Part shown: positions 582 to 48,535 of the stretch, piece after piece
How the letters are laid out: each line of letters begins with the position of its first letter
Position numbering within the stretch: the first letter of the stretch is position 1
Assembly (NCBI GenBank): GCA_045593065.1
Contig: JAZNVZ010000007.1
Span: 89,724 to 153,723 of the forward strand
DNA length: 64,000 bases
Reading direction: 5' to 3'
Source: Candidatus Enterousia sp.
Lineage (GTDB): Bacteria > Pseudomonadota > Alphaproteobacteria > Rs-D84
The notes under the pieces: model-generated
What the model saw: the letters and a program-made list of their open reading frames with translations, nothing else
Database searches by the model: none
Told to the model about the DNA's origin: nothing
Program-made: the position numbers and the translations under genes

Positions 582-603
582 TAATTTTCTGCACAAAATT
601 ACT

Positions 604-631
604 TGACAAAAATCGCTCGCCGTGTTAAATA
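604..631 (+). promoter_or_regulatory. candidate sigma70 promoter for the large hypothetical gene
   Basis: TTGACA (604-609), 16-nt spacer, TAAATA (626-631), about 30 nt upstream of the ATG at 660. Confidence 0.3.
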
Positions 632-659
632 TACTATTAATAAAAACCCGGGTAAAAAC

Positions 660-3278
660 ATGGATATAAAAAAACTTAATTTATTTGGAAACCCTGAACC
701 AATACAACCGCTATCCGAAGCGGAACTGTTCCGACAATTAGGCATGTCCCATTCTGAACTGGAGGCAAAAATTGCCGAACAGGCAAAAACAATGCCAAAA
801 AAAACAGCCGACACCAAAAAACAATTTATAAATATTTATTTTGACCCGGATGCAAACCCCCAAGATGCGACTGATGTGTTGTTATATTTGAACGCTTATG
901 TCATAGCCCCCAGCATTATGGAAACAGAAGTAAACGGCAATGTCACCGGCAATCGATACTCGTTTATAACAACTGTACACGATGTCAACAATTTGGATTT
1001 ACCCAATTTGCCTGATAATGTTTTTAAATTATTGTTGAGTTTGGTAGCAAAAGAAGATTTACCACAAATACTGCAATACAGACGAGATGAAAATATTGTT
1101 GCAATAATCCGCGAAGTTAAACACCAAGGGAAACCACTGATGCAGTCAGCCGACTTGACAGATACGGACAACCAAATTATGTTGAAAACACAGAATTCTA
1201 TTGCCGACAGCAGAAAAGCTATTTTGTCCCAAATATCAAATGCGCATGACGGAATAAACTTTTTATATTCTTGGTTTGATGACAACTGTCGCAACATTGG
1301 CTCTATTGAACCCCACAACGAAGAAATTTATAAATGTTTTCTCCGCAAAAACATTGAACTGATTTCGTCTATCACAAACCCTGATACCCAAAACAAAGTG
1401 TTTACTGTACTGATGAAACACTTGGTATTCATGCCTAACGAATTCACATATAAATTGAAACAGTTTCAAAATGTTTTGGGTGTATTAAAAAATTCTGAAT
1501 CTTTATCTATGCCCCTGGTTTTGGATGACGGGACACACACAGATTTGTTTAAACTGGACACAACAAAAATGCACGATGTTATGCATTCAATCAATGTGTC
1601 AAAAACCAGTGAATCAATCGATTTGTCTAATTTGAATATAAACGGCGATTTGATATGTTCCAAGGCCAAAGCCGCAATCGGTATGCCAAACAAAATTAAC
1701 GGCACATTAGATTGTTCTGGGTGCAAATGCAAAATTACCAAGATTCCATTTGGCACTGTCCGCGTCCAGGCCGCCCACACATTTAACAAAATCGCAGAAT
1801 TAAACACATTAGAATTTCCATCAACTGTGCGTGAAATTTTATTGGCACGATCTGTGATAAAAAACGCAACCACAGATTCCACTGAACTGGGGCATTTTAG
1901 ATTGTTTGCTGCGAAATACCCGAACATTGAAATTTTAGATGACAGAGGCGTATTATCTGTGCGCGATGCGTTGGAACAACAACTGGAAAAAATCGAACAG
2001 AAAAAGCAACCCGAAAAAGCAAAATCTGAAAAACCTGTGGCACAACCAAAACCCCAGATTCCAGAAAAAACAGCAGACCTTTTGTCGCGCAAAGAAATCG
2101 CAGAACTGTGCAAAAACGATGCAAGATTTATCGATACAGATATCGATAGATTGATAAAACGCGCAACACCAAAGTTTTCTAAACTGATAGAAAATAGAAT
2201 GTTTAATGGCACATCTGTGGTTTGCGTGCATCGTGATAATTTGGAAACACTTTTGAATAATATGGTGCAAATACTGCAAGAAGATTTGAAACGCGTTGCC
2301 ACAGAACAACCAGAAACAAATCAAATTGTCGCAGAAAAAATAGACGAAGCAAAACCCGCACCATCAACTGTGCAAAAACCAGAACCAGTTGCAATCGAAA
2401 AATATTTTTTAAAATCTGTTTGGAAAAGTATTGAAACATACTGTGGGGACAGTTCCCAAGTATTATATTCAGTATTGGAAACAGCAAACCAGGTAAATCA
2501 ACTGTATACAAATCAAAAATCTACCGAACCTGTTTTGTACTTGAATGAAAACTATATTTTACAACCAGTACCTGGAACATATGTTAAAACCGGCAAAGCT
2601 GCTGCTCAAAGAATTGGTAATGATAATGGAACGCGTATTGTGTGGACATTGAATCCAGATGATAAAATTATGGTCGCAATCGCATTTTATGATGACCACA
2701 CACCAGGAACGCGTCAAAAACAGTCTTATGATGATGTTGCCATTCCTGCTGCTGCACGTGGCTGTTTGTTGAACGGCAAAACCAAGGTTAATGCTGCGTT
2801 GGTTAAACAAGGAAACTATTTAAATATTCGCGATTTGATGGATGAATATAAACCAACACAAAAAGCTAAACCAGAACAAGAATCTAAACCCAAAAAAAGC
2901 GCAACAAAAGCGAAAATTGCACAACAAACTGTATCGACACCATCTGTGGATACAAAACCAGAATCAAAAACCACAAAACCAAAACCAGAACCTGTGGTTG
3001 CACCAGTATCGAAACCAGTCGTAATACCAGACAGTCAAAAAATCGATTTGAGTCAAATCGATAAAATGGCTCATGACCCGATGACACCACGCAGAAATTT
3101 TGTTGATGTAAAAACTGTCAGTGCTGAAATAGATGCTTTAGTCGCAACCATAGACAGAGATATAAACAACCTGGTACATGAATTGCAAGATGCACAAAAC
3201 AATCCTCAACAACAATTAGAGATTGCACGGCTGATTATTCATCATGTAAATAAAAAAATTACTTTGCTGGGTAAATAA
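660..3278 (+). CDS. large hypothetical protein (872 aa) with Lys/Pro/Glu-rich low-complexity segments; candidate secreted effector
   Basis: Long ORF. The track start at 603 is a TTG inside the promoter; the first ATG is at 660 (MDIKKLNLFGN...). It has no signal peptide and no P-loop. KPEP/KPKP low-complexity segments are present, and there is a C-terminal coiled-coil-like tail. An internal RIVWTLNPDDKIMVAIAFYDDH segment resembles a RelE/ParE C-terminus. Confidence 0.6.
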   Translation: MDIKKLNLFGNPEPIQPLSEAELFRQLGMSHSELEAKIAEQAKTMPKKTADTKKQFINIYFDPDANPQDATDVLLYLNAYVIAPSIMETEVNGNVTGNRYSFITTVHDVNNLDLPNLPDNVFKLLLSLVAKEDLPQILQYRRDENIVAIIREVKHQGKPLMQSADLTDTDNQIMLKTQNSIADSRKAILSQISNAHDGINFLYSWFDDNCRNIGSIEPHNEEIYKCFLRKNIELISSITNPDTQNKVFTVLMKHLVFMPNEFTYKLKQFQNVLGVLKNSESLSMPLVLDDGTHTDLFKLDTTKMHDVMHSINVSKTSESIDLSNLNINGDLICSKAKAAIGMPNKINGTLDCSGCKCKITKIPFGTVRVQAAHTFNKIAELNTLEFPSTVREILLARSVIKNATTDSTELGHFRLFAAKYPNIEILDDRGVLSVRDALEQQLEKIEQKKQPEKAKSEKPVAQPKPQIPEKTADLLSRKEIAELCKNDARFIDTDIDRLIKRATPKFSKLIENRMFNGTSVVCVHRDNLETLLNNMVQILQEDLKRVATEQPETNQIVAEKIDEAKPAPSTVQKPEPVAIEKYFLKSVWKSIETYCGDSSQVLYSVLETANQVNQLYTNQKSTEPVLYLNENYILQPVPGTYVKTGKAAAQRIGNDNGTRIVWTLNPDDKIMVAIAFYDDHTPGTRQKQSYDDVAIPAAARGCLLNGKTKVNAALVKQGNYLNIRDLMDEYKPTQKAKPEQESKPKKSATKAKIAQQTVSTPSVDTKPESKTTKPKPEPVVAPVSKPVVIPDSQKIDLSQIDKMAHDPMTPRRNFVDVKTVSAEIDALVATIDRDINNLVHELQDAQNNPQQQLEIARLIIHHVNKKITLLGK

Positions 3279-9860: not shown

Positions 9861-9926
9861 TTCTTGTTTATCCTTTTATCAATATAGATTACAGATTAGC
9901 AAAGAAATGCCCACATAGCAACAGTT

Positions 9927-10980: not shown

Positions 10981-12429
10981 CTAGAATGAATATTTTACAC
11001 CCAAATGCAAGCCAAAAGAACGCCAGGTCGCTTCTTTTAATGCGTCTGTTACGTGTTCTGTGGATGCGGGGTATCTTGTTGCAACAATATCATAATCATT
11101 GTTACCAACGGGCACCTCGGTATATTCGGTATATTCTGCCCAATAAATTTCGCCACCAATTTTTCCAACATGGAAATAATTTGTATCGGCCTTGATTGAT
11201 AAATGTAATCTGTCAGACAATTTCAAATCATATTCCATTTCCAATGAATATGCCAATGCACCGTTGTCGCCTTCGTCCAAGAAACTGGGGTTTTGTTGCC
11301 AATCTGTACGATTTGGCCATATACCTTCGGATGAATATTTCGGCATACTGATTTGACCATAGAAACGCAATTTATCGGTCAATGTCATTTGTTTTTCAAT
11401 TTCTAATCCAATATAAAATCCAGACCATGTTGTGTTATATTCATGCGTTTTCCCAGATACCAAAATTGGGCCATCACCACCAATTACAACACATTCGTCT
11501 GGGCCTACACCCCATGGCACATAAGGATTCGCCGCATCATACACATAATCAGACACGGTTAATGAATTATCAACATTTACATTTGCAACCTGAATTTGTT
11601 CGGGTGACACACAGACCTGGTAATAATTATCAACATAGTTTTCGGCCTGGTCCACAGGAATTGAATAATAAACACTCAAATCATTCGGGTCGCCAAACAC
11701 ATAATTTCCGTCTGCGGTCATTAATGGAATATAGACACCTTGGTTTGGATAATAATGATTACCCATTTCCAAATTATGTTTGAATATTTCGTATCCAATA
11801 ATTGGGGTCAATTTCCAACCAGCGATACTCCAAATATTTCGTGCACCAACACCAAAACGCATGTGATGACTTTCGCCACTTTGGTCGCCAACAGAAATTG
11901 TAAATATACCATCGTTTGGTCTGGAATCATCATACGGTCGCAAATCATAATCCATCGACAAACCCCCAGATGACATCTTGCCGTATGTATATTCGCCAAA
12001 TGCAGTTAAATCAAAATTACGCACAGTAAAATTATAACGACCACCAACCTGGAATTCGTTAAACATCATGTCGTCCCATTCCAGAACAGAATTAACACTG
12101 GTGGTAAATTCAAAATCTGCGAAACGGCGGTTATACCCACCATACACATAAAAACCGTTATTGGTCGCCGCCGGTTGTGCAATTCCGTTCGCCGTTACCA
12201 TACCCGCATAACCGGGAACACTTGTACCTTTTGGAACGCGGTAAGAGTATGTATTGGAAGAAACAACCTGTTTGTTGGTCGGCAAATAACTGGCTTGGGA
12301 CACATTTTGATAATTCGAACGCGCCACAGAACCGTAATTTTGATAATAAGGCGGCACCCCTTCGTTGCTGGCCAACGCGGGCGATACGGCGCAGATTCCC
12401 AATAAAAATGCAATACTATCCTTCCTCAT
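10981..12429 (-). CDS. outer membrane beta-barrel protein (Tyr/Gly-rich)
   Basis: Signal peptide MRKDSIAFLLGICAVSPALA. Alternating hydrophobic beta-strand pattern. C-terminus ...LGVKYSF ends in an aromatic residue. Confidence 0.55.
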   Translation of the reverse strand: MRKDSIAFLLGICAVSPALASNEGVPPYYQNYGSVARSNYQNVSQASYLPTNKQVVSSNTYSYRVPKGTSVPGYAGMVTANGIAQPAATNNGFYVYGGYNRRFADFEFTTSVNSVLEWDDMMFNEFQVGGRYNFTVRNFDLTAFGEYTYGKMSSGGLSMDYDLRPYDDSRPNDGIFTISVGDQSGESHHMRFGVGARNIWSIAGWKLTPIIGYEIFKHNLEMGNHYYPNQGVYIPLMTADGNYVFGDPNDLSVYYSIPVDQAENYVDNYYQVCVSPEQIQVANVNVDNSLTVSDYVYDAANPYVPWGVGPDECVVIGGDGPILVSGKTHEYNTTWSGFYIGLEIEKQMTLTDKLRFYGQISMPKYSSEGIWPNRTDWQQNPSFLDEGDNGALAYSLEMEYDLKLSDRLHLSIKADTNYFHVGKIGGEIYWAEYTEYTEVPVGNNDYDIVATRYPASTEHVTDALKEATWRSFGLHLGVKYSF

Positions 12430-16551: not shown

Positions 16552-16664
16552 ATAAACTGAACATGAATTTATATCAAAACAACGCGTTATTTTCGCGCTG
16601 TTTTTTTATTTGTTTTATGACCTAAAATATGATAAAATATTTATAAAAAGTAGGAGTGATATCG

Positions 16665-18980
16665 ATGAAAAGATTAGTTGTTGTTTTAAGCAGTTTGTTG
16701 GTTTTGCCCGCATTTGCAGAGGTTGCACCGTCTTTCTATGATGAAGAATTGGTGTTCGCTGATGCAGAATTCGGTGATGTTGACCCAGACATTGCAGACC
16801 AAGACCAAGAACCTGTGGCAAAACCCCAGGCCGCAAAAAAGCCCACGGTGGCAAACGCACGCAGCGCGACAAACACCCGCGCAACAACCGCGCGTACAAC
16901 AACAACCAGATCTGGGGTATCTGCACGCGTTCCAACAATACGCGCAAATACCACGACATCACGCGCAATATCTGGTCGTACATCATCTGCAACAACACCT
17001 GTACGCGCAACACCTGGGGTGTCTGCACGGCGTACGGGAACATATGGAAACACAAATGCACGCAGTGGCACCAAGGCACGTGCTGGGGTCGTTAACACAA
17101 CAACCAGATTATACAATGCAAACAATGCAACCGTGCAACAGCGCGGCAGTTCTGTTGGTGTCAGTGCCAGAAACAATACAATGCGTGCCGCGACATTAAC
17201 AACAACCACAACCGCAGACGATGTCATCGAAACAACAAATAATTTGGATACATTAAAATCTTTGACCGAATATTGCCAGACACAATACGCAACATGTATG
17301 GATAATTATTGCAATGTGTTGGACGATAACCAAGGACGTTGTTCTTGCTCTAAGAATTTATCAAATTATGAAAAGACCGAGGCCGCATTGCAATCTGCAA
17401 CCGAGGCATTACAAGATGTCGCACGCGCAATTCAATATATCGGTTTGACATCCGAACAAATTACAACACTGTTTGACGAAACCGAAGCCGAATTGACAAT
17501 GAAAAACCAAAAAGACAATTCCGCAATTCGTTCCGATTTGGACAAGGTTAAACGCATGATTGTTGATGTTAAATCTGGGACATCTACGGCATCTGTTGAC
17601 ACAGGTGGATTGAATCTGGATTTGTCTGGATTGTTAGATTTTACTATCGACAGTACCGGATTTGACCTATCTTCATTTATGACCAATACGACAAACACAA
17701 ACAGTATTTCAAATCAACGCGGCGAATCTTTGTTCAAAACCGCAACCGCGCGTTGCAAGGCATCTGTGTTGAATTCTTGCGTTGCCCAAGGGGTAGATGC
17801 CGCCATGATAACAAATTCTTATGATTTGGAAATTGACAAGTCATGTTTGGCATATGAACGCGCATTAAAAGATTCAAATACACAAATGACACAAACAGTT
17901 GCAAACGCAAAAGAAGTTTTGAAAAAAGCACGTTTGATGGTTGCACAAAATAAAAACGCATACGATTTACGCGGATGCGTCAGTGCATTGGAATCATGTA
18001 TGCAAGATGATTATGTATGCGGCAGTGATTACGAAAACTGTTTAGACCCAATCGGCCAATACATTGTAAACGGTGCCGTGGTCGTAGGTAGCATGCCAGG
18101 AAATAATACAGAAGGCGAAGACATCAGTTCAAGTTATTCCAATGATAATTTATTTAGGACATGGACTATCAATGCACAGAATCCTTGGGTTGCACAAACA
18201 AACTCCTCAAGTACTGATGCTAGTGATGATAATCCTAAATACAGCTCATTAGCAGATTATGTAGAAAGTAATGTGACTGCGGCGGCACCAAAGAAATCTT
18301 CTGACAAAATGATTAACTTTTTGCAGAACAAAATTGGTTGGCACGACAGCAAAAACAACAAAGATTATGGTATGTGTATGAGTGTATTAAATCAATGCCA
18401 AAAATACACATACGAAACCAAGGGCAATAAAACAACATACAATCCTGAAAATGATGTTATCAAGAATTTCTTGCAACGCGCATTGGTTCAAATCAAGGCA
18501 AAACAAGATGAATTATTGGCATCATACGGCGAAGATTGTATTAGCGATGTTCAAAGTTGTTTGTCCACAAACAATTACGATGAAAATTTGCCACAAAGCA
18601 CAAAAAGCCGTGCAGCAATCAATTCTTGCTATGCACAAATAAAAACATGTATGTCAATCAATGGCAATATCTATGGTTCGGTTACCCCGACCGAACTGCA
18701 AACATGGGTGACGGGCACATACAGTGCGATTGAATCAGTATCCACCCAGGCGGATTTAGATGCAGTGTGCGCTAACATCACTGACCCAGACACATGCAAT
18801 AACGCCAAAGTATATGTTGTTAGTTGCACTGGCAATACCAGTACATTAACACAAAATGTTTGTACATATAACGAGACATCTGGGTCATGTTCCAGAAAAG
18901 TTACTACTACTAATAGTATTCCGACACAATGTCCGGAGCCGACCACGGAGCCGACCACGGAGCCGACCACGGAACCGTAA
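16665..18980 (+). CDS. secreted cysteine-rich protein with Arg/Thr-rich low-complexity region and C-terminal (PEPTTE)n tail
   Basis: AGGAG RBS 8 nt upstream of the ATG at 16665 (the track start 16656 is GTG). Signal peptide MKRLVVVLSSLLVLPAFA. Residues ~60-190 are R/T/A/S-rich with three GVSAR motifs. About 30 Cys follow, and the protein ends with TEPTTEPTTEPTTEP. Confidence 0.6.
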   Translation: MKRLVVVLSSLLVLPAFAEVAPSFYDEELVFADAEFGDVDPDIADQDQEPVAKPQAAKKPTVANARSATNTRATTARTTTTRSGVSARVPTIRANTTTSRAISGRTSSATTPVRATPGVSARRTGTYGNTNARSGTKARAGVVNTTTRLYNANNATVQQRGSSVGVSARNNTMRAATLTTTTTADDVIETTNNLDTLKSLTEYCQTQYATCMDNYCNVLDDNQGRCSCSKNLSNYEKTEAALQSATEALQDVARAIQYIGLTSEQITTLFDETEAELTMKNQKDNSAIRSDLDKVKRMIVDVKSGTSTASVDTGGLNLDLSGLLDFTIDSTGFDLSSFMTNTTNTNSISNQRGESLFKTATARCKASVLNSCVAQGVDAAMITNSYDLEIDKSCLAYERALKDSNTQMTQTVANAKEVLKKARLMVAQNKNAYDLRGCVSALESCMQDDYVCGSDYENCLDPIGQYIVNGAVVVGSMPGNNTEGEDISSSYSNDNLFRTWTINAQNPWVAQTNSSSTDASDDNPKYSSLADYVESNVTAAAPKKSSDKMINFLQNKIGWHDSKNNKDYGMCMSVLNQCQKYTYETKGNKTTYNPENDVIKNFLQRALVQIKAKQDELLASYGEDCISDVQSCLSTNNYDENLPQSTKSRAAINSCYAQIKTCMSINGNIYGSVTPTELQTWVTGTYSAIESVSTQADLDAVCANITDPDTCNNAKVYVVSCTGNTSTLTQNVCTYNETSGSCSRKVTTTNSIPTQCPEPTTEPTTEPTTEP

Positions 18981-33868: not shown

Positions 33869-34567
33869 ATGGGGAGGAAACCTTTGCAAGAACGCATAGA
33901 ACCGCCAATTTTAATGTCTCGATTAATGGCTTTTGTTATGGCAACGGCGGCGGTTGTGCTGGTTGTGTTGTTGATTACATTGGATAAAATGTTTCCATTA
34001 AATCGGCCACAGATATTCTTTTTAACAACCCAGGGTATTAATGACAAAGAAATAACTTTAACACAAATGCCCGAAGATTTAGATGGATATAAACGCCAGT
34101 TTATACGGGAATATATACGATATCGAAATGAAATTATCCCAAATATTTCCATTATGCGGGCCAGATGGGCGCCTACGCCAAATGGAATTATTAAATCTCG
34201 TTCAACTGATGCAATATTTGGTAATTTTGCCGATACTGAAATGGTCGCAATCATTCGTCAGGGCGATTTAGATGAACCGTTAACGATTTCTTGCGATGTT
34301 GAATTTCCTGCAAAAAACGCTGTCGTATCCAAGGTTGGCGAACCAAACACATATGTTGCTAGTTTTGATTATGTTTGCGAATATGGCGATTTGGCACCCC
34401 AGAAATATGTTCAAAAATACCAAATAATTGTAAAATTAGAATCAACAGAAAAAACGGCTATAAAATGGGCTGAACGCATGGAAAACCCATTGGGGTTCCG
34501 TGTGAGTGGATATACAGTGGCAAATGGACAAAGCGACCCTTTGAACTGGACCCAAAACGAAGAATAA
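33869..34567 (+). CDS. virB8: VirB8-like type IV secretion protein (bitopic, NTF2-like periplasmic domain)
   Basis: Size (~225 aa), a single N-proximal TM (LMAFVMATAAVVLVVLLITL), and a C-terminal NPLGFRVSGYTV motif matching the VirB8 NPLGFQVTSYR signature. The start is ambiguous: ATG at 33869, TTG at 33884 after GGAGGA, or ATG at 33914. Confidence 0.6.
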   Translation: MGRKPLQERIEPPILMSRLMAFVMATAAVVLVVLLITLDKMFPLNRPQIFFLTTQGINDKEITLTQMPEDLDGYKRQFIREYIRYRNEIIPNISIMRARWAPTPNGIIKSRSTDAIFGNFADTEMVAIIRQGDLDEPLTISCDVEFPAKNAVVSKVGEPNTYVASFDYVCEYGDLAPQKYVQKYQIIVKLESTEKTAIKWAERMENPLGFRVSGYTVANGQSDPLNWTQNEE

Positions 34568-34589: not shown

Positions 34590-36101
34590 ATGTTAAAAGT
34601 GTTTAAATTTAGCGGTTTGATGTGCGCACTGATGTTTTCTGTGGTAAATATTGCGTTTGGCGCCCAAAAGGCATGGGAAAACCCAAATGCAAACATGACC
34701 GCGGGCAGTGTTAAACCTGGGTATGCACAGTTGGCGTGGGCCCCTGGAACCGTATTGCCATTAAAATTGCGTTCTGGGATGGTAACAATGGTGTCTTTAC
34801 CAAACGGTGAACAAATTGCTGATGCAGTTATTGGCGATACTAGCGCGTTTGACATCAATACTACCCAGGGCGATAGAATTTTATATATTACACCCGCTAG
34901 TGACAATACCGAAAACGACACAAATTTAATTGTGTTGGGACAATCTGGAAATAAATACATATTCTACTTAAAGAGCTCTGGGCTTGAAGATGATGAAATT
35001 GCATATTCCCAGGTTGATGTCGTTTTGGACAATGGCGCATCGTTGGCGGGCGCAAATATTGCATCTGGGGCCAGAACATCTGGGGGCATGAATTCAATAT
35101 TTAGAAAATCTGCATCAACCAGCAGTACCCTTGGCGTTGATGGCGAAGATTATGCCTGGATAAAATCTATGAAAATTGACCCGTCTGAATTTAGATTTGA
35201 TTTGGATATATTTGTTCCAAATCCAGACGATTATGTAATTGCGCCTGAACGCGTATGGCGCGACAAGATATTCACATATATCGATTTCGGCGATAAAGTT
35301 ATCGCGATGACACAACGCCCCGTGGTATCATTGATGGTCGAAGGTGGCGAATCCCCCGTGGGATTTCGTACAGATGGTCAAGACGGACGCTTATTAATTG
35401 TCGAGGCCGTTGGCGATATGGTTTTGCGCAGCGGTCAACGTATTGTTTGCATTAAAAAACGCGAAAAACCTTTCTTGATTGCAGATACGGCATCTGTAAT
35501 GGCATTGGCCGAGGCAAATGTAGCACAAAGTATGATGTCTGGGCAATCGTTGAACAATATTGCGTATAATGCGGATATGTCGGCGGTAAATGCATCTGTG
35601 ATGGATTACAGTGCGACACCAATGTATATGTCCAACACCCCAGATACAACAGGTACTGGTGTATATGTGCCTGCGGGTTATTCTATGACCCCAGATACGC
35701 AAATGTACGGTAATTCCGGGGCATATATGATTCCAACAAAACGCGAAACCGCCGGGTCATATTTGCCACAATCAAATATACCACTGATTACATCTAATCA
35801 ATCAGGGGTTGCAGTTGAATTAGCATCCGATACAAAAATGAAACCGTTGGATGATTATTGGTCTGAATTATTGGTGAAATTCAGTGGCGATGGTGGCAAT
35901 GGGTTGTTGACACCATATCAAAACAAGGTTTTCTTTGCCGTAGATTCCCAAGGTGTTGGGGATTTGGGCGCGACATCAACAACATCTAAATTGTATCGTT
36001 TGCGCATTGGACCAATCGCGGATGTGGATACTGCGCAAACATTGTGCGACAAACTGATGAAATTCCAGGTTTCAGGATGTCGTGTGGTTAGAATTCAGTA
36101 A
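34590..36101 (+). CDS. virB9: VirB9/CagX/TrbG-like protein with extra Ser/Thr/Met-rich region and C-terminal SPOR-like domain
   Basis: Signal peptide. Residues ~190-290 (KIFTYIDFGDKVIAMTQRPVVSLMVEGGESPVGFRTDGQDGRLLIVEAVGDMVLRSGQRIVCIKKR) match the VirB9 C-terminal (CagX-type) domain. The last ~70 aa (LYRLRIGPIADVDTAQTLCDKL...GCRVVRI) resemble a SPOR domain. Confidence 0.6.
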   Translation: MLKVFKFSGLMCALMFSVVNIAFGAQKAWENPNANMTAGSVKPGYAQLAWAPGTVLPLKLRSGMVTMVSLPNGEQIADAVIGDTSAFDINTTQGDRILYITPASDNTENDTNLIVLGQSGNKYIFYLKSSGLEDDEIAYSQVDVVLDNGASLAGANIASGARTSGGMNSIFRKSASTSSTLGVDGEDYAWIKSMKIDPSEFRFDLDIFVPNPDDYVIAPERVWRDKIFTYIDFGDKVIAMTQRPVVSLMVEGGESPVGFRTDGQDGRLLIVEAVGDMVLRSGQRIVCIKKREKPFLIADTASVMALAEANVAQSMMSGQSLNNIAYNADMSAVNASVMDYSATPMYMSNTPDTTGTGVYVPAGYSMTPDTQMYGNSGAYMIPTKRETAGSYLPQSNIPLITSNQSGVAVELASDTKMKPLDDYWSELLVKFSGDGGNGLLTPYQNKVFFAVDSQGVGDLGATSTTSKLYRLRIGPIADVDTAQTLCDKLMKFQVSGCRVVRIQ

Positions 36102-36134: not shown

Positions 36135-38582
36135 ATGGCAAACACAATAAAAGAAAAAATTAAAGAAACATTTTATGATACCCCTGTGGCAATTCGTTGG
36201 ATGCTGTTGGGTGCGGCTTTTATTGTCGTGTTGATATTAATATCACTGGTAATCAACAAACCAAAACACCAAAATAAAATCGTATCTGCTGATAAAAATG
36301 TTAATTTAATTATCAATCCAGATTCTGCTGAAATGTTGGCGATTCCTGTGGGCGGCAAAGAATCCAGGGTATTTAACATCAAATCAACTGATGCCGTTGT
36401 TATTGATTCTGTCAAAATCCAAGATTCTGTTGACGGTTTTTCTATATTAAACGCATGTCAAGGTGATGCAGGGTCGATTAATCAAAACATTGGATGTAAA
36501 ATAACCGCGGTGTTTGCACCCGCAAACGCAAACATTTCGGGGCAAGTCAAACTGATTATCACATGGCACGACAGCGAAGATTTAGGCGATTTAAACAAAC
36601 GCACAGACACAATAAATGTAAATGTGGGTGTCAAAGCCGACCCAGAACCAATTAATATACAACCGTCAAAACCGGCGGTATTACCTGAACCAGAACCGGA
36701 ACCCGAATTGGAACCGGAACCGGAATTTGAACCAGAACCCGAACCCGCACCGGTTGGAACGAAACCTGTTTTAGAAAAACCTGCGCCTGTAGAAAAATCT
36801 GCATCTGCGCGGAAACGCGTGGAAAGATGTTCCGATTTTGCTATGCCAGGATACAGTAATGCCGGCGCGCAAATTGGTTGGATAAAACCAAATGCGGGAC
36901 GTTATGAATTTCACCCTTTTTCCGACAAAGAATGCAATAAACCCACAGGAATTTACAATCCAAATACAGGTATAATTACCAGTATCGACAGCGGTAAAAA
37001 AATTGGAACAGACGCAGATCATGTGGCCAAAAATGTGGATTTGACGGTTGTACCAGCATTAACATCAAAACCAAAAACCACTGGGACAAGTGCATCGACC
37101 GGCACCCCACGCACAGTTGGAAAATCTCAAAATTTAAAAAACGAATTTGCCACAGAACCCGGAATGCACTTGATACAAAAAACAATAAAAGAAGAAACAT
37201 TAAAGGGTTCTGCAGATACGACAGAGGCGGTAATCAATTCACGCCCGTACGACAGAACATTTATATTGCGTCAATTTAAACCAATTCCTGCAACAATAGT
37301 GTCCGAGGTTCGCGCTGACCCATCTGTGTACGGATGTAATAACAAGGATGCCAATGGCAGTTGCGATGGTGGCAGTGGCATTCCTGTCCGCGCAACGGTC
37401 GACAGAAATGTTTATTCTGACAATGGACGCACAATTATCATTCCCACAGGCACATTGTTAATGGGGTATTTAACTGGGGATTTACCGGGACCATATAAAA
37501 CCATTGGTCGTATGCAAATCAAATGGTATCAATTTATTCGTCCAGATGGTGTGGAATTTAATTTTAGCAGTAATGACCAAGACCCGTATTCTGCCGATTC
37601 CCAAGGGCGCGTTGGGGTTCCCGGATATGGCAGTACGGATTATATTGAACAAATGGTTATGCCTTTGTTAACCGCGATGGTTCCTGCGGCCGTTAATATG
37701 ATTGCGCCAATCGCTGACACATTCGTTAATCAAATCGATTTAGATAACAATACTGTTGTGCAATCCGGCAAGGTGCGTTCATCAGAATTAGCCAAGAACG
37801 AGGTTATAACCGCGTGGAATCAGGTTGCACAAAAATTAATCGTTGATGCATTAGATAACACAGTGCCACCATTTTCAATCGCTGCGGGCACCCGTATTAC
37901 CGTATATTCGCCTGTGGATTTAATCGCCACATGCGACAAAACAGAAAACGCTGGCAAAAAATGTGCATTTGAAACTTATAACGCCAATCCACGCCGTCCT
38001 TGGAAAGGTTTAAAAGAGCAAGTAAAGGTGGATTGGAACGATTCATCATGGACAGGGCAAGTGCGTTCGTTTAATCTAGACCGGTTTTGTACAGGTGATG
38101 CCAGCAGCGGCAAAAGAACCGCAGATAACACCCAGGCAGCCGAAATTTCCGCCGCAGGGTATGATTACAGAACCGTATTGGCATATTGCCAATCCCAAAA
38201 TTATCAGGCAAAAAACCAGGCAAAATACGATGCGTATTATCAAAATCTGACCGCTAATGCCAAGAATACGAATAAGGTCGAAGTAAATGAAAATGATGGA
38301 AAACTTTCTGTCAAATATAACGACGAATTTAATAAAAATGTTCTGGGGTTGGAATACGAAACTGATGAAGAGGGAAATGAAACAGGTCTTATAAAGAATC
38401 CATTTGAAAAATCTTCGTCTGTGCCTGCAACAGAATCTGTGGGCAGTTTGGATTGCGATGGCACGGCACCTGATGCAAATGGATGTTGCCCTGGGGAAAC
38501 ATATACCGATATGGGCGACCAAGGATTTAACTGTTGCCCTGCGGGCGGCGGCGATTGTTTCCCACCGTTAAATGTAAATTAA
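36135..38582 (+). CDS. virB10: VirB10-like protein (815 aa) with (PE)n repeat and long Cys-rich C-terminal extension
   Basis: N-terminal cytoplasmic segment plus TM (WMLLGAAFIVVLILISLVI). Pro-rich PEPEPEPELEPEPEFEPEPEPAP. VirB10 barrel-domain motif GRTIIIPTGTLLMGYLTGDLPG. About 230 extra C-terminal residues end in DCDGTAPDANGCCPGETY...NCCPAGGGDCFPP. Confidence 0.65.
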   Translation: MANTIKEKIKETFYDTPVAIRWMLLGAAFIVVLILISLVINKPKHQNKIVSADKNVNLIINPDSAEMLAIPVGGKESRVFNIKSTDAVVIDSVKIQDSVDGFSILNACQGDAGSINQNIGCKITAVFAPANANISGQVKLIITWHDSEDLGDLNKRTDTINVNVGVKADPEPINIQPSKPAVLPEPEPEPELEPEPEFEPEPEPAPVGTKPVLEKPAPVEKSASARKRVERCSDFAMPGYSNAGAQIGWIKPNAGRYEFHPFSDKECNKPTGIYNPNTGIITSIDSGKKIGTDADHVAKNVDLTVVPALTSKPKTTGTSASTGTPRTVGKSQNLKNEFATEPGMHLIQKTIKEETLKGSADTTEAVINSRPYDRTFILRQFKPIPATIVSEVRADPSVYGCNNKDANGSCDGGSGIPVRATVDRNVYSDNGRTIIIPTGTLLMGYLTGDLPGPYKTIGRMQIKWYQFIRPDGVEFNFSSNDQDPYSADSQGRVGVPGYGSTDYIEQMVMPLLTAMVPAAVNMIAPIADTFVNQIDLDNNTVVQSGKVRSSELAKNEVITAWNQVAQKLIVDALDNTVPPFSIAAGTRITVYSPVDLIATCDKTENAGKKCAFETYNANPRRPWKGLKEQVKVDWNDSSWTGQVRSFNLDRFCTGDASSGKRTADNTQAAEISAAGYDYRTVLAYCQSQNYQAKNQAKYDAYYQNLTANAKNTNKVEVNENDGKLSVKYNDEFNKNVLGLEYETDEEGNETGLIKNPFEKSSSVPATESVGSLDCDGTAPDANGCCPGETYTDMGDQGFNCCPAGGGDCFPPLNVN

Positions 38583-40980: not shown

Positions 40981-41895
40981 ATGAAAAAGCAAATCAAGAA
41001 TACTTTACCAGCCACACAAAATACCAGCATTGTCGCCGCACGCGGTGTCAGTGATGAATCTGGGTTGGCACAATATATTCAAAGTATTCAAAAATACCCA
41101 ATACTTTCCGCCGAACAAGAATACGAATACGCAACACAATGGACCAAACACCACGATTCGATTGCCGCAGAAAAATTAGTGGCCAGTCATCTGCGATTGG
41201 TGGTGTCTGTGGCATACGATTTCAAAAACTATGGTATTCCGGTGGCTGATTTAATCGCATCGGGAAACATGGGATTGATGCAGGCATTACAAAAATTTGA
41301 CCCAGAACGCGGGTTTCGGTTTTCAACATATGCAATGTTCTGGATCAAGGCGGAAATTTACGAAACAATTTTAAATAATTGGTCTATTGTGAAAATCGGG
41401 ACTTCGGCAAATCAAAAACGCGTGTTTTTTAACCTGGCACGCGCAAAGCGCGCACTGGGGATTATGGACAACAATTTAAATGACGAACAAACAAAACAAA
41501 TTGCTGAATTTTTAAATGTGCCAGAAACCGATGTTTCTCGTATGTCCCAACGCATCGGTGCGCGCGATGTATCGTTGAATGCACCCGCACATAATGACCC
41601 AGATTCTCACGAAATTCTGGCCAATTTAACAGATGATAAAATCGGTATCGAAGAAAGTATCGAACAATTAGAATTCAAAAAAAAGGGTTATGAATTACTG
41701 CGTAAACATTTGGCCGAATTACCTGAACGCGACCGCGAAATTTTACGCGCACGGCGATTGGGCGACCCGGCTGAAACATTGGAATCTTTGTCGCAAAAAT
41801 ACGGGATTTCACGCGAACGGGTACGACAAATCGAAGAACGCGCATATAATAAACTGCGCGATGCAATATTAAATGAAACAGATGGGGGAAAATAA
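40981..41895 (+). CDS. rpoH: RNA polymerase sigma-32 factor RpoH
   Basis: Sigma70 regions 2 and 4 and an RpoH box-like QKRVFFNLARAKRAL; 304 aa. Confidence 0.8.
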   Translation: MKKQIKNTLPATQNTSIVAARGVSDESGLAQYIQSIQKYPILSAEQEYEYATQWTKHHDSIAAEKLVASHLRLVVSVAYDFKNYGIPVADLIASGNMGLMQALQKFDPERGFRFSTYAMFWIKAEIYETILNNWSIVKIGTSANQKRVFFNLARAKRALGIMDNNLNDEQTKQIAEFLNVPETDVSRMSQRIGARDVSLNAPAHNDPDSHEILANLTDDKIGIEESIEQLEFKKKGYELLRKHLAELPERDREILRARRLGDPAETLESLSQKYGISRERVRQIEERAYNKLRDAILNETDGGK

Positions 41896-42914
41896 TGCAC
41901 AAAATTGCTGTATTGGGGATTTTAACCGTGTTGGCAACCGCAAATTCCGCAAATGCCTTGCAATATTCAACAGGACGCAGCGCATTCCGTTTTAATGCAT
42001 CTGGCACAGCCGGCGTATTTGAACCAGATTTCAAAGATACTTTGTTTTTGGGCGATTTTGAATTGCGTGCCCAGTATAATTATGCCATTGCCGCAGGTCA
42101 AACATTCGGTTTGATTTATGAATGGGATGGCCACGCATTGGATGAACGCGATTGGGCGCACGATGCGTTCGCATTATGGGAATTTCGTGATGTCGGCCGA
42201 ATAGAGGTGGGTCTCACATCGTCTGTGGCACATAAATTAGGGGTTGGAATACCTGATGTTGGCGGATTGCGTGTAAATCATAAACCGTTGTTTTACAAAA
42301 AAATTCGCCCACAAGGAAATGTGATTCCTGATACAACAGTAACAACTGGGCATGATGCTGTGCGTGTGAATTTGGTAACTGTGCCAACTGCATTGGGGCA
42401 ATATGGTGTATCAGCGGCTGGATTTACCGATGAATTTGATTACGCGGTTGATGGCGGTATCAAATTCAGGTTTCCAAACGGCAAATTAAAATCGGCATTG
42501 TCGTTGGGCGGCTCGTTTATGGATAACCCACATAATTATAATTCAACATCATATACACCAGATATTACGGCTGATTGGCGCGCCCAGGGGTCAATCGGGC
42601 TGAATTTGCAATATAACAGTTGGATTGTTGGGACATCTGTGTTGGCAATATACGACAAAAACCCCGTGGGGACGGCTGGGGACGGCATTTCTGGCGGAAT
42701 CGGGGTCAGTTATGATTTGTTGAATTATTCGGCATCGCTGTCTTATATGTATTCAAAAACAGGTATTTGGCACAACGATATGCCTGATTATGATGACCAT
42801 ACGGTTATTTCGTCTGTGCGTTATAAATACAGTGAAAATCTGTCGATGTGGACATCAATAGGTTTAACCACAAAAACACCGTTTGTGTCCGCCGCAATTA
42901 AATTAGAATTTTAA
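41895..42914 (+). CDS. outer membrane beta-barrel protein (putative)
   Basis: Signal peptide MHKIAVLGILTVLATANSANA; amphipathic beta-strand pattern; C-terminal ...AAIKLEF. Start overlaps the rpoH stop (TAATG). Confidence 0.5.
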   Translation: MHKIAVLGILTVLATANSANALQYSTGRSAFRFNASGTAGVFEPDFKDTLFLGDFELRAQYNYAIAAGQTFGLIYEWDGHALDERDWAHDAFALWEFRDVGRIEVGLTSSVAHKLGVGIPDVGGLRVNHKPLFYKKIRPQGNVIPDTTVTTGHDAVRVNLVTVPTALGQYGVSAAGFTDEFDYAVDGGIKFRFPNGKLKSALSLGGSFMDNPHNYNSTSYTPDITADWRAQGSIGLNLQYNSWIVGTSVLAIYDKNPVGTAGDGISGGIGVSYDLLNYSASLSYMYSKTGIWHNDMPDYDDHTVISSVRYKYSENLSMWTSIGLTTKTPFVSAAIKLEF

Positions 42915-46054: not shown

Positions 46055-46561
46055 TTACTTTTTACGAAATATAGAATTTATTATAAACAAACCGACACCG
46101 ATTACAATAAATATATCGGCAACATTAAATGCAGGCCAATGAATATCGCCCACATGAAAATCCAAGAAATCAATTACCGCACCGAAACGAATCCTGTCGA
46201 TTAAATTACCCAATGCACCACCGATGATAAATGCCAAAGGCAGTTTTTCGTGTGTGCCTGCGCGCCTGAACATGTAATAGAATAAAAAACCAATCAATGC
46301 AGCCGTTGCCACAATAATAATCAACGGATATAATTCCCCAAACGAACGAAACAACGAAAACGAAGCCCCAGGATTCCATGTAAACACAATATTAAACCAA
46401 TTTGTTATATGCGACATAATATACGGAAACCCAACCACAGACCACGCATTTCCATAAAACGGCACACCACCCGTTATGAGATATAACAACACAGATTTTG
46501 CGATTTGGTCCAATAACACAACCCCAAAAATCACAGATAAATATTTAAGTACATTTTTCAT
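46055..46561 (-). CDS. lspA: lipoprotein signal peptidase II
   Basis: Four TM helices; NPGASFSLF; FNVADIFIVIGVGLFI. Confidence 0.85.
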   Translation of the reverse strand: MKNVLKYLSVIFGVVLLDQIAKSVLLYLITGGVPFYGNAWSVVGFPYIMSHITNWFNIVFTWNPGASFSLFRSFGELYPLIIIVATAALIGFLFYYMFRRAGTHEKLPLAFIIGGALGNLIDRIRFGAVIDFLDFHVGDIHWPAFNVADIFIVIGVGLFIINSIFRKK

Positions 46562-46730
46562 ATTTTACCTTTTACATTACGCATTGGAAATATAGCAATA
46601 TGCAACAGTAAAATCAAATGAAAATACATAGACAAAAATTATGGTGGCGGACCAACGAAGTTGGTGGGGTAATTGTGAAATGCTCTAAACTGATACTGTG
46701 TGTAATTGAATGATGAATTATAAATTAAAC

Positions 46731-47100
46731 TGCCCCGTCATACCGCCACAGTTCGTATAGTCGTCATACCGCGGTTTCGGGCCCCGCCCTGCGGCGGGGT
46801 GACGATTCTGTGGGGATTAACAGTCCCGTCATACCGCGGGCGCGCGGTATCCAGTCCGCCATAGGCGGACTTGTGTAATAAGTGAGCAAGTTGGTGCGTT
46901 GCACCAACTGGATTCCGGCATGCGCCGGAATGACGATTGTGTGGGAATTAACAGTCCCGTCATACCGCCACAGTTCGTATATCGTCATACCGCCGTAGGG
47001 CGGTATCCAGTTTTGCGGAACGCAAAACTTGTGTCATTTTGCTTTATTACACAAGTTGGCGCATTGCGCCAACTGGGCCCCGCCCTGCGGCGGGGTGACG
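46731..47100. repeat. array of hairpin-forming intergenic repeat modules (REP/RPE-like), about two composite units
   Basis: Module R1 is a GC hairpin followed by TGACGATT(c/g)TGTGGG(g/a)ATTAACAGTCCCGTCATACCGC. Copies lie at 46781-46838 and 46913-46968, with a third truncated copy at 47077-47100. Module R2 is GGTATCCAG followed by a hairpin, TTGTGT and a second hairpin. Copies lie at 46849-46915 and 46999-47075. CCCGTCATACCGCCACAGTTCGTATA is repeated at 46734 and 46955. Confidence 0.7.
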
Positions 47101-47985
47101 TTATTGCATCAATCGCATGCAATGCGTGCCATTGCCATTACAGAATTTTGTAAATGCACCTATCTTGCATTGTCTTATACTGGTTGCGCCTGGCTCGCCC
47201 TGAAAGGTTGGGTCGTGTATTGCTGTTGACTCAGGCGTAGTAACAACTGTCAGCATGCCGGCGGGACACTTGGTACAACCCGCGTAAGGATCGCCATAGG
47301 TATTTCCCTTGCACACACATTCATTATTACCCCCGACAAAGGCGTAATCCCCGCACGAGCGACAGGTAACAACACCATTGGTGCCAATGGTTTTATACCT
47401 GCCACTGGGACACCCCACTGTTGCACTGGTTGCGCCAGCATTTTCACACCCGGTCCAATCATTGCCGCATGATTGACATGTAAATGTATTGTCGATTAAA
47501 CCACCATTTGCATTGGTTGTTTTATAATACCCTGATTGACATGTACAAGCATTAATATCGGTTGCACCTTGGGCACTGGTGGAATGTTCTGGACATTCGG
47601 TACATTCGCCGGCGCCGGTGTTTGCATCATACGAACTGCGGTAATAATTCATGGTGCATACCCACGGGCAATATGATAGACCAGTGGTATTATCGTCAGC
47701 AGGGTTAAAAACAGAGTTACCAGGGTGATCGGATGCGGTTTCTGCCCACGACCAAACACTATTATCATATGAACCACATTTTAGGCAGGAGCGTGAGTCG
47801 TTACCAGGGTTGTAGTAAAACGAAGCACATTGTGTACATTCTCCACCAAACATTGAACTGGATGCATTCCACTCCCACCCCGGACATACACAATCATTTT
47901 CGGGTGTGGACGACGTACACTCTGCATTTGCCATAAATGGCATAAATACCGCAATAATTAATAAAAATTTTAGTATTTTTTTCAT
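47101..47985 (-). CDS. secreted cysteine-rich repeat protein (GCC2_GCC3 / Giardia VSP-like CxxC repeats)
   Basis: Start at MKKILKFLLIIAVFMPFMANA with a GGGGAAGGGAA RBS (the track ORF starts 23 codons upstream). About 40 Cys arranged as repeated C-x2-C...G-x-Y(Y) units: GECTQCASFYY, CLKCGSYD, GECTECPEH, CTCQSGYY, TCQSCGNDW, TCRSCGDYAF, CTKCPAGM. Confidence 0.6.
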   Translation of the reverse strand: MKKILKFLLIIAVFMPFMANAECTSSTPENDCVCPGWEWNASSSMFGGECTQCASFYYNPGNDSRSCLKCGSYDNSVWSWAETASDHPGNSVFNPADDNTTGLSYCPWVCTMNYYRSSYDANTGAGECTECPEHSTSAQGATDINACTCQSGYYKTTNANGGLIDNTFTCQSCGNDWTGCENAGATSATVGCPSGRYKTIGTNGVVTCRSCGDYAFVGGNNECVCKGNTYGDPYAGCTKCPAGMLTVVTTPESTAIHDPTFQGEPGATSIRQCKIGAFTKFCNGNGTHCMRLMQ

Positions 47986-48103
47986 TTCCCTTCCCCTTTT
48001 TGACCTTGCCAAAACTTTACACCAAAAAAAAAAAACGCAAGATTTTTGTTGCAAAAAATATATTTTATGACAAAATGCAGGTATGTATATAAAGGAGCCC
48101 TAT

Positions 48104-48535
48104 ATGAAATTAAACACAACATACAATTTAAAACGCGGTGCACTGGTTGGATTATTGGCATTATTACCATTTGCCGCATGCAAAAAAGAACCTGTGGAGC
48201 CAGAACCAACACCAACACCGGTTACGCCCGCACAACCAACCACACCAAAGGTTTACACATTTGTGTATGATGGCGATGGGATTCCTGCGGATACGGCACG
48301 TGCACATTTAGATGTAGATACATTTTATGTTGTGCCAGTGCGCTCAACTTTATTTCAAACCATATCAAGCAATGGTATACATAATGCAAGAAATCATTTG
48401 CAAAGCATTATTGACATCAATCCAAAAACACGTGGCAAAGGCGATTTGATTACAATCTATGCCAGTGTTGAAGATTCCGCGTGGTTATCACAATTTGGTT
48501 ATAATGTAAAAAGGGAATACAGCAAATCCCGCTAA
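48104..48535 (+). CDS. lipoprotein with Pro/Thr/Glu-rich linker, hypothetical
   Basis: AAAGGAG RBS; MKLNTTYNLKRGALVGLLALLPFAAC lipobox; EPVEPEPTPTPVTPAQPTTP linker. Confidence 0.55.
   Translation: MKLNTTYNLKRGALVGLLALLPFAACKKEPVEPEPTPTPVTPAQPTTPKVYTFVYDGDGIPADTARAHLDVDTFYVVPVRSTLFQTISSNGIHNARNHLQSIIDINPKTRGKGDLITIYASVEDSAWLSQFGYNVKREYSKSR

Follow-up and report, generated by a model that had tools for sequence, protein, structure and literature searches.

What role could a chain of cysteine-rich, receptor-like modules play in a bacterium? This question is raised by the window, that is, the whole 64-kb stretch of Candidatus Enterousia sp. DNA analysed here (contig JAZNVZ010000007.1). Its positions 47101–47985 hold, on the minus strand, the open reading frame (ORF) of a cysteine-rich exported protein of 294 amino acids (aa), which runs from 47985 down to 47101, including the stop codon at 47101–47103. 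This protein, referred to below as the rod, belongs to a bacterial family that is mosaic in composition and whose genes adjoin that of a lipoprotein. We tentatively read it as the contact-making part of a complex in the cell envelope or on its surface.

The rod and its cysteine-rich repeats

A longer, TTG-initiated ORF was set aside because the NCBI protein P0001 corresponds exactly to the 294-aa form, with an identical sequence and the same start. The ATG at 47985 is also favoured over the TTG at 48054 because the purine-rich AAGGGGAAGGGAA, the ribosome-binding region at 47986–47998 (minus strand), directly precedes and abuts it. Inspected by eye, the N-terminus, MKKILKFLLIIAVFMPFMANA|ECTSS, is organized like a signal peptidase I substrate, with a charged and a hydrophobic stretch and an A-x-A site. 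The signal peptide assigned from this sequence comprises aa 1–21 (47923–47985, minus strand), and an equivalent hydrophobic N-terminal leader is present in all full-length family members. A lipobox of the form [LVI][ASTVI][GAS]C is absent from the leader of the rod; the cleavage region reads FMANA|EC, with the first cysteine at residue 23 after Glu22. The original prediction had named a signal peptide; its features are those of the Sec type, and the gene product is, judged by them, Sec-exported. The mature rod comprises 273 aa and not the approximately 290 residues previously given for the part after the signal peptide.

The rod contains 26 cysteines (8.8% of 294 aa) instead of the approximately 40 claimed earlier. 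They are arranged in 6 CxxC and 3 CxC motifs, and only 4 GxY motifs are present. On the basis of the mean cysteine content of the remaining 39 window genes, 1.13%, the probability of finding at least 26 cysteines in 294 aa is 1.5e-15. The rod sequence was also aligned to itself, with 200 composition-preserving shuffles as the control. The top off-diagonal alignment scored 64, as compared to 41.7 ± 7.4 in the shuffles (z = 3.0), and this value was reached by 1 of the 200. Internal repetition above the level of shuffled sequences, as implied by the repeated C-x2-C...GxY units described for this gene before, is thus present, but the units are degenerate and irregular. About 6–7 degenerate units of the PF07699 type can be recognized, and only two of them keep the canonical CxxCP...GAT...CxC..GYY form.

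An even number of cysteines follows the signal peptide in 45 of 48 family members (binomial P = 6.6e-11). Of the members with odd numbers, three in all, at least P0047 and P0066 have no normal N-terminal leader and look truncated. The cysteine counts in the family (26, 30, 34 and so on) are not multiples of four. Counts that are even without being multiples of four are more in line with full pairing in disulfides than with Cys4 metal sites. The cysteines of the rod would, on this evidence, be paired in vivo as 13 predicted disulfides.

The Pfam scan revealed PF07699 (Ephrin_rec_like, formerly GCC2_GCC3) in two to three stretches of the rod, with E = 2.1e-7 and 31.1 bits, above the gathering score of 23.1. 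The assignment to GCC2_GCC3/ephrin-receptor-like repeats, made originally from the sequence pattern, agrees with this result. The same family was matched by 31 of the 48 family members, with a best E value of 1e-15. No other Pfam family was found for the rod at E ≤ 10, including PF03302, the family of the variant-specific surface proteins (VSPs) of Giardia, and TNFR_c6 (PF00020); PF03302 was also unmatched in the 48 family members at E ≤ 0.01. PF23091, a model resembling tumour necrosis factor (TNF) receptors, was matched by 11 of the 48. The search of PDB sequences with the family profile yielded a sole relative, the Chlamydomonas mastigoneme protein Mst1, which is annotated as ephrin-receptor-like (E = 7e-13).

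The AlphaFold2 model of the rod, calculated from an alignment of 48 sequences, consists of short beta-strands only and has a predicted local distance difference test score (pLDDT) of 88.8 and a predicted template modelling score (pTM) of 0.73. In the Foldseek search of the PDB, Mst1 chains came first (E values of 7e-5 to 6e-4), followed by OX40, CD40, TNFR1, RANK, ELAPOR1, meckelin, and EphB2. The matches to TNF-receptor ectodomains had probabilities of 0.9–1.0 and E values of 1e-3 to 3e-2, at low template modelling scores (TM-scores) of 0.2–0.4. Among viral models, poxvirus TNF-receptor-like proteins were in the lead (E = 2.9e-5), and an algal-virus ephrin-receptor-like protein was also found. 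An elongated, eukaryote-type ladder of disulfide-stapled beta-hairpin modules, of the ephrin-receptor-like/TNF-receptor type, is therefore a well-supported prediction for the fold of the rod. By family threshold and fold, the rod belongs to PF07699; it is neither a Giardia VSP nor a TNFR_c6 protein.

The mature rod, encoded throughout on the minus strand, begins with an N-terminal module (aa 22–135; 47581–47922), which includes a conserved CPWxC..YY element as well as the first of the canonical CxxCP units. Its near-invariant cysteine columns are C23, C32, C50, C53, C70, C106, C110, C128, and C131. The best-scoring PF07699 stretch (aa 110–147; 47545–47658) corresponds to profile positions 14–48 of 48. 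In the middle part (aa 136–205; 47371–47580), extra cysteine-rich units vary among the family members, and the length range of the family, 220–450 aa, stems from these units. Insertions after residues 178 and 189 have a mean of 24 and 17 residues per member and occupy up to 90 and 142 alignment columns, respectively. The conserved C-terminal module (aa 206–294; 47104–47370), which ends ...QCKIGAFTKFCNGNGTHCMRLMQ, displays the lowest column entropy of the rod.

Relatives, the linked lipoprotein and segment exchange

A word-indexed homology search yielded four relatives at first and 11 later, and the exhaustive profile search retrieved 307 proteins at E ≤ 1e-3. The short matches (220–450 aa) follow the profile over its full length, starting with the signal peptide and ending with the C-terminal motif C.M...TKFC..NG.NCM.L, and the one whose source was named belongs to a metagenome-assembled genome (MAG) of an 'Alphaproteobacteria bacterium'. 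The long matches with several stretches are, where named, eukaryotic and come from the cryptophytes Hanusia phi and Guillardia theta. Whether the best hits are eukaryotic or amoeba-symbiont proteins had been posed as a check; they are not, and the nearest relatives form a dedicated bacterial family from MAGs of uncultured Alphaproteobacteria, and eukaryotic repeats come next. A scan of the genome collection revealed one distant family locus, in a MAG of Candidatus Enterousia avicola, without the lipoprotein partner described below. In addition, a second, secreted subfamily with more regular CxxCPxNSxSxxGxxSIxxCxCNxGYY units occurs at L006:3264–4130 (Candidatus Enterousia avicola) and L008:5594–6919 (loci are designated by L and a number). 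It carries another C-terminal motif, ..C[YM]..S.T...DT.G.F.F...C.Y., and no adjacent lipoprotein gene.

The rod family is specific to a lineage of uncultured, genome-reduced gut Alphaproteobacteria, which probably lies in or near the order Rs-D84. This order, which includes Candidatus Enterousia, comprises fermentative inhabitants of animal guts with genomes of <1 Mbp, which lack flagella and many pathways and for which dependence on partner cells has been proposed (PMC12306168). The window encodes lactate dehydrogenase, pyruvate kinase, VirB8/9/10, and a Protochlamydia-type outer membrane protein, which fits an Rs-D84-like organism. In the literature on bacterial GCC2_GCC3/ephrin-receptor-like repeats, Rs-D84, and Enterousia, no description of the family, its lipoprotein partner, or the gene cassette was found. 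A 2026 preprint on 'cysteine-rich repeats' was judged to deal with another repeat; its starting proteins are those of Neocallimastix and it mentions no ephrin-receptor-like domains.

The gene of the partner lipoprotein P0160 (143 aa; 48104–48535, plus strand) is divergent from the rod gene. The protein is composed of a signal peptide, a lipobox ...LPFAAC with Cys26, a Pro/Thr-rich linker of about 22 aa, and an alpha/beta domain of about 95 aa. Its family includes 237 homologues, which belong to Alphaproteobacteria MAGs where named, and Cys26 is invariant in the 51 sequences aligned. The core of the lipoprotein was modelled by AlphaFold2 with a pLDDT of >95. No Foldseek match at E ≤ 1e-3 and no Pfam, NCBIfam, or meaningful PDB sequence relative was found for it; in PHROGs there was only a marginal match to phrog_30470 (E = 0.008, with no stretch passing alone), and in PADLOC there was none.

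A lipoprotein homologue, detected with hidden Markov models built in this analysis, adjoins the rod gene in all 12 distinct loci of the core family (the window, L001, L007, and L009–L017; L018 repeats L017). In each of the 11 loci other than the window, the lipoprotein gene is located immediately upstream of the rod gene on the same strand. A secreted protein of 850–980 aa precedes the lipoprotein and the rod in seven distinct loci (L007, L009–L013, and L017). The homologue of this protein in the window is a large secreted, Cys-containing protein of 774 aa, encoded 30 kb away (16656–18980, plus strand) and related to the L007 protein with E = 6e-17 in tblastn and E = 2e-12 in phmmer. Among the eight loci with sufficient upstream sequence, the window is the only one in which the large secreted protein is not adjacent. 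The 774-aa protein consists of an Arg/Thr/Ser-rich low-complexity N-terminal part, a helical region that contains cysteines, and, at the C-terminus, a (PEPTTE)n tail, and belongs to no Pfam or NCBIfam family. For the rod, too, no NCBIfam family was found, and neither the rod nor the large protein was matched in PHROGs or PADLOC. A second lipoprotein copy, P0182, is most likely located on the same contig as the window. It is presumably paired with the rod paralogue P0002, which does not lie within the window.

The mode of variation in this family is seen most clearly in loci with closely similar surroundings. L011 and L017 share 97–98% identity across 12 kb of flanks and include a divergent segment, 723 bp in L011 and 895 bp in L017, in which similarity is undetectable. 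This segment encodes the globular domain of the lipoprotein and the beginning of the rod, up to residue ~127 in L011 and ~160 in L017. The leader and linker of the lipoprotein and the C-terminal ~170 residues of the rod stay ~97% identical. In the rod genes of L007 and L011, the synonymous divergence (dS) is 0.66 in the first 100 codons versus 0.03 in the remainder. The corresponding values in the flanks are 0.06–0.07 for the large secreted protein and polA, and 0.06–0.19 across all flanking genes. The ratio of non-synonymous to synonymous divergence (dN/dS) in this comparison is 0.2–0.5. The pattern indicates imported segments under constraint, rather than positive selection acting by point mutation.

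The rod gene of the window displays the converse of this. The last 256 nt of its rod gene (47100–47355) are 92% nucleotide-identical to the gene in L001, and the remainder of the gene has no detectable nucleotide similarity to it. Among identical residues of the two proteins, 96% have an identical codon in the C-terminal part and 51% in the N-terminal and middle part. The adjacent lipoproteins are 36% identical and have 35% shared codons. The lipoproteins of the family are of three types, A, B, and C. Rods with an 'MKFIF' leader are found with a type B lipoprotein in 3 of 3 loci, and rods with other leaders are found with type A or C in 9 of 9. Given the patterns in L011/L017, L007/L011, and L001, the family is therefore a mosaic: a constant C-terminal module, a middle part of variable repeat number, and an exchangeable N-terminal part tied to the lipoprotein type.

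The G+C content at third codon positions (GC3) of the rod gene is 0.393, as compared to 0.370 ± 0.039 for the genes of the window. Its raised G+C sits in codon position 2, because of the content of Cys, Gly, Thr, Ser, and Ala. The raw codon log-likelihood is confounded by composition; with a z-score corrected for amino-acid composition, the synonymous codon choice of the rod gene is the most atypical of the 40 window genes (z = -4.5; the others have a mean of -0.15 and an sd of 1.6). Such codons fit a recombining, perhaps weakly expressed gene and alone are no sign of recent foreign origin. The earlier suggestion of horizontal acquisition is thus not upheld for a recent event, GC3 being normal relative to the window genes; only the synonymous choice is somewhat atypical. 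That the repeat passed from a eukaryote to a bacterium long ago is plausible from the distribution of the domain.

A promoter-like element, TTGCGT-15 nt-TAAAGT, assigned by consensus only, is located 28 nt upstream of the ATG (48014–48040, minus strand). Its spacer is mostly T12 (A12 at 48024–48035 on the plus strand), and this run is the only homopolymer of ≥9 nt in the 64-kb window. Eight other scanned loci possess TTGC(A/G)N-17 nt-TAxxxT at the same place before the rod gene. In most of these eight loci, a terminator-like hairpin follows the lipoprotein gene, just upstream of the promoter-like element. With its own promoter and the upstream hairpin, the rod gene appears to be a separate transcription unit, which explains how it could function in the inverted orientation of the window. 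A homopolymer in a promoter spacer is a known phase-variation architecture in other bacteria. By analogy, we hypothesize that the T12 tract is a candidate slipped-strand on/off switch; it may also be a homopolymer assembly error.

A GC-rich palindromic repeat array (46722–47100) lies directly 3' of the rod gene, between it and lspA, and stops at the base before the stop codon of the rod. The adjacency of the gene to a repeat-element array, pointed out in the original prediction, is thereby confirmed. The array is made of the repeat families D1–D4 and inverted pairs, with units such as CCCCGCC-CTGC-GGCGGGG and ATACCGCC-GTAG-GGCGGTAT, and probably includes the transcription stop of the rod gene. 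The array is 94% identical over 148 nt to L001:19087–19234 and related to L012:7718–7836, and a similar palindromic unit is present between the lipoprotein and rod genes in L010 (about 9870–9910). These units look like a small mobile element family common to the lineage. An invertible element was considered as the cause of the gene orientation in the window and rejected, since only short, imperfect inverted pairs flank the rod gene. The gene lspA, encoding the lipoprotein signal peptidase (46055–46561), is located ~540 bp from the rod gene and ~1.5 kb from the lipoprotein gene. This proximity is probably a coincidence, as the arrangement is not shared by other loci.

Proposed function and alternatives

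We propose, with a probability of roughly 45%, that the rod acts within a contact complex of the envelope or surface, as the variable component that contacts the ligand. The protein would be exported by Sec, oxidised to a rigid rod, and assembled with the adjacent lipid-anchored lipoprotein, possibly also with the large secreted protein. The long Pro/Thr linker of the lipoprotein would tether the complex to the membrane. The C-terminal knot (..TKFCxxxGxxCMxL..) would represent the constant part, and the N-terminal module with the variable number of middle units would be the exposed, exchangeable part that contacts the surface of a partner cell or host. Diversity would be generated by segmental recombination between deep allele classes and not by point mutation, with the lipoprotein domain and the N-terminal module of the rod swapped together. 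Such segment exchange would renew specificity or antigenicity. Surface exposure of the rod and a function in adhesion or contact are thus suggested, and a role in the interaction with a host or partner is plausible.

Several observations weigh against this proposal. Physical binding between the rod and the lipoprotein is suggested by gene adjacency and joint replacement only, and one recombination tract over adjacent DNA would give joint replacement without any interaction. The window is the only one of the 12 loci in which the rod and lipoprotein genes are divergent. Also, the mature N-terminus of the window rod resembles those of the 'MKFIF'-type relatives P0009 and P0013, and its neighbour is a type A lipoprotein. 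With a type-B-like rod N-terminus beside a type A lipoprotein, the two proteins of the window may not be an ancestral cognate pair. The rod could remain in the periplasm. No outer-membrane export route was identified for it, and the VirB genes, 10 kb from the rod, are unlinked to the cassette in other genomes. As to the oxidising power needed for 13 disulfides, no gene for a Dsb oxidase was found in the 64-kb window, and Rs-D84 genomes are reported to be without respiratory chains (PMC12306168).

Among the alternatives, an antigenically variable protective coat deserves the closest look, and we consider it unlikely. The rods would then act in the manner of Giardia VSPs, as a dense protease-resistant layer that has no specific ligand and is in part exchanged, and possibly switched, against host immunoglobulin A, phages, or grazers. 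Disulfide-rich rods are typically protease-resistant. Deep allele classes with segmental replacement at one locus in 97–98% identical strains would suit such a coat, as would the T12 tract in the promoter spacer and the presence of at least two paralogous cassettes, P0001/P0160 and P0002/P0182, most likely on one contig. However, two copies per genome so far do not amount to a large silent repertoire, dN/dS is <1 throughout, and the rod itself is without a membrane anchor. A partner lipoprotein that is strictly conserved, together with terminal modules that are conserved as well, suggests a specific assembly and not a simple coat. Quite doubtful is a more far-reaching idea, namely that the lipoprotein, the rod, and the large protein form an unknown attachment device, which docks these bacteria, devoid of pili and flagella, onto a protist or the host epithelium. 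In such a device, a eukaryote-derived rod would recognize a eukaryotic ligand, would be respecified by module exchange, and would be switched by the T-tract. The best sequence and fold matches of the rod are to Mst1, which forms filaments. Rods could accordingly be imagined to polymerise into hair-like surface filaments, as Mst1 does in mastigonemes, with the large secreted protein as a possible base and the lipoprotein as a possible anchor. Yet Mst1 has ~2000 aa and polymerises through other domains too, as compared to only 273 residues in the rod. A conserved polymer interface is hard to reconcile with the hypervariability of the N-terminal part, genes for pili or ushers are absent from the vicinity, and the chances of a structural fibril subunit are very slim.

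Nor is a released decoy much more credible; its chances are slim as well. Such a soluble protein or effector would bind signalling ligands of the host animal or of protists, for example TNF-family cytokines, as poxvirus TNF-receptor mimics do. The Foldseek matches to TNF-receptor ectodomains and poxvirus TNF-receptor-like proteins, the occurrence of PF23091 in 11 of 48 members, and the animal-gut habitat point in this direction. The likeness is, however, one of a generic cysteine-rich module only, given the low TM-scores and the absence of TNFR_c6, and a structural protein of an alga is matched better than any receptor. No route of secretion through the outer membrane was identified, and a free decoy would not be expected to have a conserved lipoprotein partner. 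We regard it as highly improbable that the rod is a periplasmic metal-binding protein (zinc or iron) or a thiol-redox buffer using its CxxC pairs. Hypervariability and allele exchange would be unexpected for a housekeeping protein of this kind, the cysteine counts of 45 of 48 members are even and not multiples of four, and the domains to which the rod is related by homology and fold are known as disulfide-bonded. On the other hand, some of the six CxxC motifs are arranged as CxxC-x13-CxxC and resemble zinc knuckles, the organism is anaerobic and apparently without respiratory chains, and no Dsb gene was found in the window. Hardly tenable is a recently acquired eukaryotic passenger gene without an integrated role. 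It would explain the predominantly eukaryotic occurrence of the domain, the rank of cryptophyte proteins as next-best matches after the family, and a synonymous codon choice that is the most atypical of 40 genes, but is contradicted by the family and synteny data: the family is bacterial and diversified, and its synteny is conserved in at least 12 loci. GC3 is normal, the gene possesses a bacterial signal peptide, a ribosome-binding site, and a conserved promoter, and dN/dS of 0.2–0.5 shows constraint.

Under the preferred reading of the rod as a contact component, the locus would be a candidate contact device in Rs-D84, a widespread uncultured gut group, including Candidatus Enterousia and relatives, that is thought to live off other cells (PMC12306168). 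It offers an exported receptor-type rod and a strictly linked lipoprotein without a detectable fold relative. It also bears a population-genetic signature of diversifying pressure, in that alleles are deep, segments are swapped, and a promoter switch may exist. The family adds a diversified bacterial branch to a domain usually considered eukaryotic, which bears on the origin and exchange of cysteine-rich receptor modules. If the rod is only periplasmic, the finding shrinks to the annotation of a new family.

Other genes of the window and comparison with known systems

The window contains a row of type IV secretion genes coding for a VirB8-like protein (33869–34567), VirB9/CagX with a SPOR domain (34590–36101), and VirB10/TrbI (36135–38582). 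The latter protein is unusually long (815 aa), and the codon usage of its gene is the second most atypical in the window (z = -3.6). No Pfam family was found for the ORFs at 603–3278 (891 aa), 61504–62820 (438 aa), and 41895–42914 (339 aa); the first of these also displays atypical codon usage (z = -2.8). The Protochlamydia-type outer membrane protein (PF17251, Pom) is encoded at 10981–12429. Pom genes are also present just upstream of the cassette at L010:4328–5941, L011:4708–6246, and L017:1048–2586, among genes of small unknown proteins, and Pom and the cassette surroundings may represent an envelope gene island. Phage-like genes (Bbp19-like and head-tail connector) were identified on the related metagenomic contig, at L001:19269–20753, 9 kb from the cassette.

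Of the systems known, Mst1 (PDB 8tx1, 8wa2, 9b4h) is the one with which the rod shares the PF07699 repeat family, and both are exported, extracellular-type rods with paired cysteines, as predicted for the rod. The differences are considerable. The rod is bacterial and has 273 mature residues, in contrast to ~2000 in the eukaryotic Mst1. It possesses conserved N- and C-terminal modules of its own and an obligate neighbouring lipoprotein gene, whereas filament formation is a trait of Mst1. The cysteine-rich domains of TNF receptors (OX40, CD40, TNFR1, RANK) and their viral mimics (poxvirus CrmE-like) are ladders of disulfide-stapled modules, as is predicted for the rod. Unlike these receptors, the rod has no TNFR_c6 match and no transmembrane or death domain, and the TM-scores are low.

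With Giardia VSPs, the rod shares many CxxC motifs, the character of an exported cysteine-rich ectodomain, and a conserved C-terminal part combined with a variable part, for which exposure is proposed in the rod. By analogy, expression switching is possible for the rod too. Nevertheless, the VSP-like nature originally attributed to it was not confirmed: the rod ends ...FCNGNGTHCMRLMQ, without a C-terminal transmembrane helix or any other transmembrane segment and without a CRGKA tail, and PF03302 is unmatched even at E ≤ 10. There are ~2 rod copies per genome versus ~200 in Giardia, and the rod varies by allelic segment exchange between strains.

Opc and PorA of Neisseria and Msp2 of Anaplasma are mosaic, recombination-driven surface proteins with homopolymer switches in their promoters. 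The rod resembles them in its conserved ends and hypervariable centre or head, in the high-dS imports, and in the homopolymer within the promoter spacer of its locus. It differs in its unrelated fold, being a cysteine-rich rod and not a beta-barrel; no donor cassettes of the pseudogene type were seen, and phase variation is only a candidate here. The mode of action of the rod may be that of a variable surface protein, although it is a member of no such family.

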